A stretch of 10,993 nt of DNA, from assembly GCA_964244895.1 (NCBI GenBank), contig CAXTKV010000178.1, forward strand, positions 1-10,993. The letters are read 5' to 3'. Source of the DNA: an uncultured Deinococcales bacterium (GTDB taxonomy: Bacteria; Deinococcota; Deinococci; Deinococcales; JAAFIG01). This document shows positions 9,603-10,993 of this stretch, in pieces. Position 1 is the stretch's first letter. Each line of letters opens with the position of its first letter. A program made the position numbers and the translations under genes. The notes below the pieces were generated by a model, which saw only the letters and a list, made by a program, of their open reading frames with translations, searched no databases and was not told the origin of the DNA.

Positions 9603-9666
9603 AGCGTATCTCGAGCGCGGGATCGGGAGCTTCCGGCGAATGGCTTAGGGCGAATCAACGTAGACT
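9603..9666. promoter_or_regulatory. Divergent leaderless promoters for the SDR (-) and Rieske (+) genes
   Basis: TACGCT on the minus strand (9603-9608) 6 nt before ATG9596; TAGACT (9661-9666) 6 nt before ATG9673; no SD for either gene. Confidence 0.6.
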
Positions 9667-9672
9667 CCCGGC

Positions 9673-9984
9673 ATGAATCGCGTCCTGGCTGGCACCCTTC
9701 TGGAATTTCCCGAAGGCGCACAGAAATCCATCGAGTTTCACGACGAGTACGTGCTGGTCTTGCGTTCACCGTCCGGCTTCTGGGCCATCGAGGATCGCTG
9801 CTCGCACGACGACAACGAGTTGCTCGGCGGCCTGGTCGTCGGCAAGACCATCAAGTGCGTTCGCCACGGCGCGACCTTCGATCTCGAGTCGGGCGCCGCC
9901 CTGTCCATGCCCGCCGTTCGCGGCGTGAAATCGTACCGCGTGTTGATCGAGGACGATCTGGTCTGGGTGGAAACGAAAGACTGA
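9673..9984 (+). CDS. Rieske [2Fe-2S] ferredoxin (non-heme iron oxygenase ferredoxin type)
   Basis: C-x-H (CSH) and C-x-x-H (CVRH) ligand motifs, HGATFDLESG, 103 aa. Confidence 0.92.
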   Translation: MNRVLAGTLLEFPEGAQKSIEFHDEYVLVLRSPSGFWAIEDRCSHDDNELLGGLVVGKTIKCVRHGATFDLESGAALSMPAVRGVKSYRVLIEDDLVWVETKD

Positions 9985-10071
9985 GAGCGGGTTTCTCGAG
10001 CCTCGAGGAGTGCGAGTAGGTCGGAGGTCAAAGAGGTTGAAGGGTAAAAGGTGAAAGGAAAGACAGACGGC

Positions 10072-10091
10072 GCCCTGCGAGAAGGGTTTTT
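10072..10091 (+). terminator. Putative intrinsic terminator after the Rieske gene
   Basis: GCCCT-GCGAGA-AGGGT followed by TTTT, inside a larger purine/pyrimidine inverted repeat. Confidence 0.45.
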
Positions 10092-10110
10092 CACTTTTCC
10101 CTCTGACCTT

Positions 10111-10167
10111 CAGCCGTCCCACACGCTGTTTTCTCGAGGGTCGAATCTCGCGTGCTGGACGGTGTTC
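10111..10167. repeat. REP-like palindrome, copy F
   Basis: CAGCCGTCCCACACGC-N23-GCGTGCTGGACGGTGTTC. Confidence 0.7.
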
Positions 10168-10263
10168 GGTTTCTCGAGCTTCAGGGGTACGCCGTTTCGC
10201 GTGCCGCCATGTACGCCGTTCGAGTCACGCGCGCGGCAGCCGCAACCTCTAGAGTTCTCATTC

Positions 10264-10380
10264 GGAACGGCGGCAGACGAACGCAGCGGTCGGGGTTCAT
10301 TCGTGTTTGGCCGATACGACGCCCCGCTGGCGCACACAGGTTTCCTGGTGTCGCGTACCGCGAACGCGAGTCCATGTTCC
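10264..10380 (+). ncRNA. Candidate structured small RNA, Y-RNA-like
   Basis: The 5' end GGAACG..GAC-GAA-CGC can pair with the 3' end GCG-A-GTC..TGTTCC. Contains GACGAACG (GNCGAANG) and two internal hairpins. TAGAGT -10-like box at 10250-10255. Ends one base before the first tRNA. Confidence 0.4.
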
Positions 10381-10381
10381 A

Positions 10382-10455
10382 GGACGCGTAGCTCACTGGT
10401 AGAGCGCTCGAGATGGCTCGAGAGGACGACGGTTCGATTCCGTTCGCGCCCACCA
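10382..10455 (+). tRNA. Atypical tRNA or pseudo-tRNA, Ala(GGC)-like, with a non-canonical 6-nt anticodon loop
   Basis: Acceptor GGACGCG/CGCGCCC (A3-C70 mismatch), D arm GCTC-ACTGGTA-GAGC, anticodon arm CTCGA-GATGGC-TCGAG, T arm GACGG-TTCGATT-CCGTT, then A73 and CCA. Confidence 0.75.
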
Positions 10456-10540
10456 CAGGATTGGCGGATTGGTAACCGCTACTGACTTGAAATCAGTCGG
10501 GCGAAAGCCCATGCAGGTTCGATTCCTGCATCCTGACCCA
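10455..10540 (+). tRNA. tRNA-Ser(TGA), atypical acceptor end
   Basis: Acceptor (A)CAGGAT/ATCCTG(A), D arm GCGG-ATTGGTAA-CCGC, anticodon arm ACTGA-CTTGAAA-TCAGT (TGA at 10488-10490), long variable arm GGGC-GAAA-GCCC, T arm GCAGG-TTCGATT-CCTGC, then C73 and CCA. Confidence 0.85.
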
Positions 10541-10541
10541 C

Positions 10542-10614
10542 CTGGTTTTAGCTCAGAGGTTAGAGCAACCGACTTGTACTCGGTGAGTCCTGGGTTCAAC
10601 TCCCAGAAACCGCA
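10542..10614 (+). tRNA. tRNA-Thr(TGT), degenerate acceptor stem, no encoded CCA
   Basis: Acceptor CTGGTTT/AAACCGC (C1-C72 mismatch, U2-G71), D arm GCTC-AGAGGTTA-GAGC, anticodon arm ACCGA-CTTGTAC-TCGGT (TGT at 10575-10577), T arm CTGGG-TTCAACT-CCCAG, A73 then TCA. Confidence 0.8.
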
Positions 10615-10649
10615 TCAGCGTAAACACATACGTTGAAATCCTTGCACCA

Positions 10650-10905
10650 CGCGACGGTTGCCTCGAGCGCGAATCGTATCCGGATCGGGTTCGCCCGCGA
10701 AGGATTCGGCTCGCACCGCGCCCGAAGCCCGGACGTGACGTTCCGCCCCGCTCCTCGTCCTCGAGTCACGTTAGGCCTCTATCGCCCTCAACAGCGTGCG
10801 GCCCTGCGGCACATCCCGGATGTCGGCGGAAAGGCTCGGGTTCGCCCGAGTCCGGCGCAACCCACGGCCCACCTCGGGAACGGCAGTCTCGAGGCAACCA
10901 ACGCG
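10650..10905 (+). ncRNA. Candidate large structured ncRNA (unrecognised family)
   Basis: Closing stem GGTTGCCTCGAG (10656-10667)/CTCGAGGCAACC (10888-10899), extended by CGCG/CGCG. Two CGGG-TTCG-CCCG hairpins and several nested stems. No credible ORF. Confidence 0.5.
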
Positions 10906-10987
10906 CCCTTTTGCATCAATCGCGCCCGGCGTCGCTCTTGAGTTGCCCGTCCCAGTCGCAATCACCAACGCTGAATGAAGGAGAGCC

Positions 10988-10993
10988 ATGTTC
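10988..10993 (+). CDS. Start of a downstream CDS (truncated by the window)
   Basis: Strong SD AAGGAG (10978-10983) followed by ATG TTC. Confidence 0.5.

Follow-up and report, generated by a model that had tools for sequence, protein, structure and literature searches.

A probable Band-7-associated RNA-slipin locus with three tRNA-shaped modules in an uncultured Deinococcales bacterium

Described Band-7 and Ro60 systems and the locus under study

A tRNA-like RNA beside Band-7 genes was predicted in 2016 and is called unvalidated in the passage of a 2018 paper that treats it (10.1101/312249). In Anabaena 7120, according to the passages on TrcR, this protein represses rtcB, a tRNA array and the gene pair alr0739-0740 (PMC10272220), the latter being identified as YdeI and slipin in a passage of PMC9938897. 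Without TrcR the pair is up 72- and 42-fold, rtcB is likewise up, and chloramphenicol acts as an inducer (PMC10272220). The slipin alr0740 is co-induced with rtcB and the tRNA array under translation stress, as the relevant passages state (PMC10272220, PMC8421152). A two-part RNA, consisting of a likely protein handle and a tRNA-shaped part, appears in passages on YrlA/Yrn1 and Rsr (PMC4201824; 10.1101/312249). Furthermore, a parallel to the vault particle (MVP plus vault RNA), based on repeats, an SPFH domain and a long helix, is already in print in a passage of PMC13404743.

The window, i.e., the whole stretch of DNA that was analyzed (10,993 nt), is an entire contig (C178) of a 5.1 Mb genome that consists of 328 contigs and is 91% complete. 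We are confident that the locus at its 3' end is a Band-7-associated RNA-slipin pair. It comprises a non-coding unit of ~650 nt, made up of a junction domain, three tRNA-shaped modules and a 3' domain, which likely heads the slipin gene. We regard it as a stand-alone, larger form of the Band-7-associated tRNA mimic, free of both Ro60 and RtcB.

Like the Band-7/b7a-tRNA/RtcB system, the locus has a tRNA-like non-coding RNA directly 5' of a Band-7/SPFH gene (in 11 of 13 relatives, and presumably here). In contrast to that system, RtcB is not adjacent and three tandem modules stand in place of one. Compared with what the b7a-tRNA passage describes, the slipin (~510 aa) carries additional N-terminal repeats, while the conserved 5' three-way junction and the 250-nt 3' domain are absent from that description (10.1101/312249). 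Since RtcB is not adjacent, the locus was classed as a variant and not as the three-part operon. The system itself is known, and the "new RNA components" of the original prediction are only partly new, since the b7a-tRNA has been a prediction since 2016 (10.1101/312249). New here are the Deinococcales case, the defined 5' core, the conserved promoter, the lack of an attenuator and one contig from an RNA run, which is a weak hint.

Structure and conservation of the RNA unit

About 700 nt were originally described as lacking a credible open reading frame, and this holds true: the three overlapping ORFs of 79-144 aa found there have no tblastn match in the loci of 13 relatives and are disrupted by frameshifting indels in the contig of a related strain. 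A DNA search of 61 genomes had located the RNA cluster in these family relatives.

The unit begins with a 5' domain (10264..10380, + strand), in which an outer helix GGAAC/GTTCC surrounds a conserved three-way-junction core (10282..10362, + strand). The core consists of P1, P2 with a bulge, and P3 with a UA bulge; in the alignment of relatives P1 is joined to P2 by a 3-nt joint, and the copy in this genome has an additional hairpin in the P2 loop. The predicted end-paired element of 117 nt is present at these positions, but it folds no better than shuffled sequences (z -0.10), so that its support is comparative. The outer helix, judged by comparing the outer duplex with shuffles, is enriched rather than universal: in 25 of 69 loci it does better than 48 or more of 50 shuffles.

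For the core, a model (R1) was built from 13 loci, with this genome and genome G010 left out. In the MAFFT alignment of the 13 sequences, 97.8% of the cells are paired, and both partners change in 10 of 21 pairs; none of 500 shuffles reached the alignment score, the structure being derived from these same, related sequences. The held-out window is R1's best match (47.4 bits) and the sole strong copy in the genome. Outside Deinococcota, the comparison covered 75 slipin loci (L031-L105; Cyanobacteria, Proteobacteria and others), of which R1 matches 55 at E<=0.01, or 55 of 70 if only foreign loci with >500 nt upstream are counted, the Deinococcales records L026-L030 being excluded from this count. 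All these foreign matches lie 5' of the slipin gene and on its strand, and 52 of 59 R1 matches are found at most 40 nt from a tRNA-like gene (median 21 nt). Among 80 metagenome slipin loci, 64 have useful upstream DNA and 38 of these match R1, some of them duplicates. When 57 distinct held-out sequences were fitted to the model, 92.7% of the cells paired and 15 of 21 pairs showed compensatory change; the outermost P1 pair is unpaired in 29 of the 57. Within the family, the 13 of 18 genomes that have a slipin are the same 13 that have the 5' core, 12 of them belonging to R1's training set. Matches in 11 genomes of other families (E 5e-5 to 9e-3) were taken as noise. Four slipin genes (L063, L069, L082 and L105) are preceded by two copies of the RNA unit, which are ~1.9-2.5 kb apart.

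Three tRNA-shaped modules follow, all called by ARAGORN on the + strand and all matching the Rfam tRNA model RF00005, the only model that reaches its cut-off in an Rfam scan of the window. Module 1 (10382..10455; 52 bits) has a 6-nt anticodon loop, an A3:C70 mismatch and an encoded CCA. Module 2 (10455..10540; 49 bits) combines a long variable arm and the anticodon TGA with A1:A72, C73 and a CCA. Module 3 (10542..10614; 59 bits) has the anticodon TGT, C1:C72 and no encoded CCA, unlike the three housekeeping tRNAs used for comparison, which all encode it. The three abutting cloverleafs of the original prediction are therefore all present, but the spacers, given there as 0-1 nt, are -1 and +1, because the first base of module 2 is also the last base of module 1's CCA. 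Each module deviates from the housekeeping form, as had been proposed, by its 6-nt loop and A3:C70, its A1:A72 and C73, or its C1:C72 and missing CCA. Normal Thr-TGT and Ser-TGA genes are located elsewhere, on contigs C53 and C6.

Among relatives, the D and T arms of the modules are kept and the anticodon arms vary; the D/T elbow is retained, and anticodon and acceptor identity are lost. The anticodon arm of module 1 varies in length and sequence, module 2 carries GAA, CAA or AAA and shortened or extended arms, and module 3 has a mispaired acceptor top in every one of the 14 family loci. The anticodons of module 3 in these loci are TGT (8), TCT (2), TGA, CGT and TAG (1 each), with a loop insertion in the remaining one. 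The latter, at L025 (genome G012), is an insertion of ~37 nt into the anticodon loop; the inserted sequence is found again in a repeat that lies 5' of the slipin start. A 7-nt anticodon loop, a paired acceptor top and an anticodon that is stable among orthologs, as a decoding tRNA would have them, were not found together in the modules. The original prediction was right in that the unit is not a housekeeping tRNA operon. Standard annotation miscalls its modules as Ser, Thr, Met or Ile tRNAs.

One might still regard the modules as spare, stress-induced decoding tRNAs like those of the cyanobacterial L-array, with the flanking domains as processing aids. The 7-nt loops of modules 2 and 3 contain U33 and A37, both modules score above the Rfam tRNA cut-off, some homologous loci (L032, L036 and L039) continue real tRNA arrays, and CAT is common in the copies of Cyanobacteria. 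Across the set of 69 loci no anticodon is more frequent than CAT, which 25 of 64 first modules and 27 of 50 second ones carry; most of these come from related cyanobacteria, and anticodon drift is not free there. However, the mispaired acceptor top of module 3 in all family loci, its five anticodons plus an insertion, the 6-nt loops or long extensions of modules 1 and 2 in relatives, and the separate array of 24 tRNA calls in this genome make such a role improbable. A same-strand tRNA-like gene occurs within 1.5 kb upstream in 66 of 71 slipin loci that have at least 900 nt of upstream DNA (three of them from Deinococcales), and in 0 of 66 on the downstream side.

Decayed tRNA genes from a mobile element, with flanking folds that arose by chance, would account for the fact that every module is defective, and CTCGAG palindromes do inflate hairpins here. 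However, the order and spacing of the parts, the promoter and a covarying domain persist throughout the family and in other phyla; the held-out R1 matches in other phyla refute this reading, and we give it next to no credence.

The 5' element had been taken for a Y RNA, partner of Ro60, and this part of the original prediction has to be withdrawn. No TROVE match was obtained in the window, on contig C278 or in the genome (91% complete), also if a relative's TROVE protein served as query. The Y RNA models stay far below their cut-offs (YrlA, RF02553: 19.5 bits versus 69; Deinococcus Y RNA, RF01053: 21.1 versus 80); their matches fall inside the tRNA modules, and neither covers the 5' element. 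The YrlA match spans two tandem tRNAs, which are a named source of false YrlA matches in the passage on this subject (PMC4201824). What speaks for a Ro60/Y RNA locus like rsr of Deinococcus radiodurans is an end-paired 117-nt RNA with GACGAACG near its 5' end (10276-10283), fitting the published Ro-type motif GNCGAAN0-1G, and the presence of TROVE in 8 of 18 family relatives. However, the motif is found in 0 of 13 relatives, and TROVE always lies on contigs other than that of the slipin. In 6 of the 8 TROVE loci the Ro60 gene is preceded by Trp and Ser tRNA genes, and R1 matches none of the 8. In genus g4 the RNA is present in 6 of 6 genomes and TROVE in 0 of 6. The matching end of the tRNA array on contig C151 leads into an unrelated gene in this genome, which fits TROVE loss rather than an assembly gap. 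Consequently, we consider a Ro60 partnership highly improbable.

Nevertheless, the likeness to YrlA and Yrn1 extends beyond the two-part design to the kept D/T elbow, the loss of anticodon identity and the RNA-repair context, as far as the passages describe them (PMC4201824; 10.1101/312249). The modules differ from YrlA, which is circularly permuted with a closed acceptor stem in these passages: they align to RF00005 positions 1-71 in normal order, and their acceptor ends are open. Besides, Ro60 is missing here.

The unit ends in a 3' domain (10644..10910, + strand), which begins with GCACCAC, has a branched interior and is closed by the helix 10650-10667/10888-10905. The folded element of about 260 nt in the original prediction corresponds to the 256 end-paired nt from 10650 to 10905 (z -2.74; 0 of 200 shuffles as good). 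Arbitrary pieces of the 3' region gave no folding signal (z +1.28 and +0.28), and 10615-10990 as a whole yielded z -1.06. A perfect 12-bp inverted repeat as found here is seen at that distance in 0.8% of 1000 windows drawn at random from the genome, although half of it is CTCGAG, which itself amounts to 4.3 per kb in the genome. Place, start motif and end-pairing of the 3' domain are kept in 14 of 14 family loci, with z from -1.7 to -10.2. Its interior is not matched across genera by nhmmer, and profiles from genus g4 or g5 miss both the copy in this genome and all 75 foreign loci. The folds obtained for two genera share a side hairpin and a long interrupted rod, and compensatory changes are few within these genera (1 of 79 and 9 of 56 pairs). 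Conservation of the non-tRNA segments among related loci is thus given, by covariation for the 5' core and by place and ends for the 3' domain. As an aside, CTCGAG, with its genome-wide density, is also frequent in the loci of relatives and resembles a highly iterated palindrome.

The probable slipin gene and the genome setting

The window ends with an SD, GAAGGAG (10977-10983), followed by the codons ATG TTC, the ATG being at 10988 (feature 10977..10993, + strand), just as the original prediction had read it. The RNA cluster is followed immediately, and without a contig break, by a long SPFH/Band-7 (slipin) gene in 11 of 13 family relatives; in the other two, G009 and G011, the contig stops before the downstream gene, as in the window. 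The family slipin has ~510 codons and a Band_7 domain. This genome's sole slipin ortholog begins contig C278 (G000:C278:56-1408) and is devoid of residues 1-60. Its protein has a Band_7 domain and groups with the family slipins (support 100/100 in a tree of 22 rows), and its nearest named relatives are Deinococcales records; two further Band_7 genes in the genome are of other kinds. The missing N-terminus was not found anywhere in the assembly, a C178-C278 overlap was not detected, and the first 55 bases of C278 are non-coding and match nothing. A related run contig continues for 4.3 kb. Since C178 ends at ATG TTC and C278 starts without the first 60 codons, we infer the link between window and slipin rather than read it. 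The slipin of another family of the order begins with the same ATG TTC. The gene starting at 10988, whose retrieval the original prediction had called for with Ro60 as one candidate, is very likely the SPFH/Band-7 slipin as judged across this contig break; the partner is not Ro60.

The slipin gene was found in 13 of 18 family genomes; the rest of the order adds 2 out of 182 genomes, and one of these two is a weak, distant match. One slipin from another family (L122, genome G200) groups with cyanobacterial and acidobacterial proteins rather than with the family of this genome, and transfer is possible. By sequence the slipin is closest to stomatin, which is also the best match of its structural model. 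Compared with MVP, the full model aligns over ~590 columns (Foldseek E 3e-10, TM 0.25). The vault parallel weakens with the N-terminal repeats alone, which resemble MVP weakly (Foldseek E 5e-3, TM 0.18) and find their best VIA-align match in the first SPFH subdomain (Z 5.6). MVP-type N-terminal repeats are therefore not established by Foldseek and VIA-align.

The position of the RNA between the promoter and the slipin start would also suit a cis-acting leader of the slipin message, in which the modules serve as processing signals, the flanking domains control slipin, and no stable particle is formed. The 3' domain ends ~80 nt 5' of the ATG and differs between genera, as leaders do. However, in some cyanobacteria other genes or up to 2.5 kb separate RNA and slipin (L102, L099), and the four loci mentioned above have a second RNA copy further upstream. 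Moreover, the 5' core keeps a constant distance from the first tRNA module and not from the slipin gene. Hence, we hold a mere leader to be unlikely and prefer the RNA-slipin pair.

The genes upstream of the RNA unit (SufD, GGDEF, dienelactone hydrolase, beta-helix, DUF218, short-chain dehydrogenase and Rieske) are unrelated to it, and the RNA loci of relatives have other upstream neighbors. SufD is solitary at 649-2043, and the Rieske ferredoxin is encoded 7.6 kb away (9673-9984). A dispersed 54-nt repeat (10114-10167) has many copies on other contigs, at 76-87% identity. Viral contigs contained no relative, an exact 24-mer matched 0 metagenome stretches, and a metagenome protein scan revealed no same-genus locus.

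Promoter, RNA repair and a proposed mechanism

The -10-like box TAGAGT of the original prediction (10250..10255, + strand) is present, and all 14 family loci have a TANNNT at the corresponding position; a scan with the sigma-70 consensus, on the other hand, calls no promoter. Upstream, two TACGCC motifs are found within 10188..10217 (+ strand), the second one 38 nt 5' of the -10 box, and TA[AC]GCY stands 38-39 nt 5' of this box in all 14 family loci. The start of transcription is predicted near 10262-10264. The pair of TA[AC]GCY and TANNNT is possibly a family-wide promoter element or activator site. With 33 occurrences of the pair at a distance of 38 nt in this genome, it may also be a general promoter element. 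One such pair precedes the short-chain dehydrogenase gene (9610-9650, - strand), apart from 32 other places. An operator common to the RNA and rtcB was considered and rejected, the pair occurring at 4 of 17 rtcB loci and 33 times genome-wide.

Between the -10 box and the RNA no attenuator, leader gene or terminator was found. A long hairpin with a U-run lies 3' of the Rieske gene (10027-10112) and is deleted or replaced in two strain contigs; given this placement and its absence from these contigs, it was discarded as an attenuator candidate. One freshwater RNA run yielded a contig of 183 nt over 10276-10458 (depth 21.9), which bridges the 5' domain and module 1. It is a weak hint, as contigs give neither ends nor strand and DNA carry-over is possible. 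Contigs of this RNA run cover neither the upstream genes nor modules 2-3 or the 3' domain, which, for contig data, proves nothing. Given run shares of 0.04-0.18, we claim no habitat.

RNA repair and translation stress, the context put forward in the original prediction, fit the homologous loci, which carry RtcB, RtcA and Tpt1, and the chloramphenicol-induced slipin of Anabaena. In this genome RtcB is encoded on C76, away from the locus, and a Tpt1 homolog on C96. None of the 15 family loci has RtcB, RtcA or TROVE as a neighbor, and RtcB is not found downstream on C278. The flanks of other slipin loci include RtcB in 7 of 75 and in 8 of 80 cases; RtcB is present at L078, L091 and L031, with RtcA at L091, and Tpt1 and YdeI are present at L102. 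R1 matches the RtcB-linked loci L078 (E 9e-5), L031 (5e-4) and L091 (3e-3), more weakly L060 and L032, and not L042 and L044. Given these three matches, the RNA of this locus and that of the classic arrangement are homologs. In Anabaena azotica (L102) the RNA heads Tpt1, YdeI and slipin. Other genes also accompany slipins: an AAA ATPase 3' of the gene at L031, L032, L035 and L036, an HNH nuclease at L038, and EF-G at L040.

As in the Anabaena TrcR regulon, this genome has a separate tRNA array and rtcB. A difference is that the passages on TrcR mention no RNA at alr0739-0740 (PMC10272220, PMC8421152). In addition, the published TrcR repeat occurs at only 3 of 48 cyanobacterial RNA promoters, in 6 of 50 regions upstream of slipin and in 1 of 50 downstream. 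Being rare at RNA promoters, it indicates that the RNA need not be stress-induced; for the present locus, both stress induction and function are predicted from its homologs.

With some reservation, we propose that the RNA acts together with the slipin as a tRNA-mimic scaffold or decoy in RNA repair upon translation damage, a mechanism whose probability we place somewhat short of even. Starting from the observed parts, their conservation and covariation, and the pairing of RNA and slipin in relatives, we infer the following steps. Transcription would be driven by the -10 box at 10250 and meet no attenuator. Cuts at the module junctions would then leave module 1 attached to the 5' domain, giving an RNA of ~190 nt that has two parts and a terminal CCA. 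The 5' domain might be the handle for a slipin oligomer, comparable to the Ro60-binding stem in Y RNAs. The tRNA elbows could engage repair enzymes encoded elsewhere (RtcB on C76, the Tpt1 homolog on C96) or absorb tRNA-cutting nucleases. The 3' domain would either remain on the slipin message or provide an additional binding site.

More speculatively, and rather unlikely in our view, the long slipin might form a soluble vault-like cage, with the RNA as dedicated cargo that docks via a new protein-binding junction fold. Such a cage would display tRNA elbows, either to recruit repair enzymes or to trap tRNA nucleases. If true, bacteria would possess a second RNA-protein machine besides Ro60/Y RNA and parallel to it, one that works with neither Ro60 nor a linked ligase and spans Deinococcota, Cyanobacteria and Proteobacteria. 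The covarying core of 67 positions, its fixed distance to module 1, the promoter and the exact boundaries make the predicted RNA directly testable, including in Anabaena. Tests could reveal the role of soluble SPFH proteins toward RNA, and whether or not a bacterial vault-like RNA particle exists.

The separate tRNA array of this genome comprises 24 tRNA calls, 23 of them on the same strand (G000:C151:8015-11705, - strand). Ahead of it lie an ORF of 53 codons and a hairpin with a U-run, read by eye, which are a possible attenuator of an L-array-type operon.
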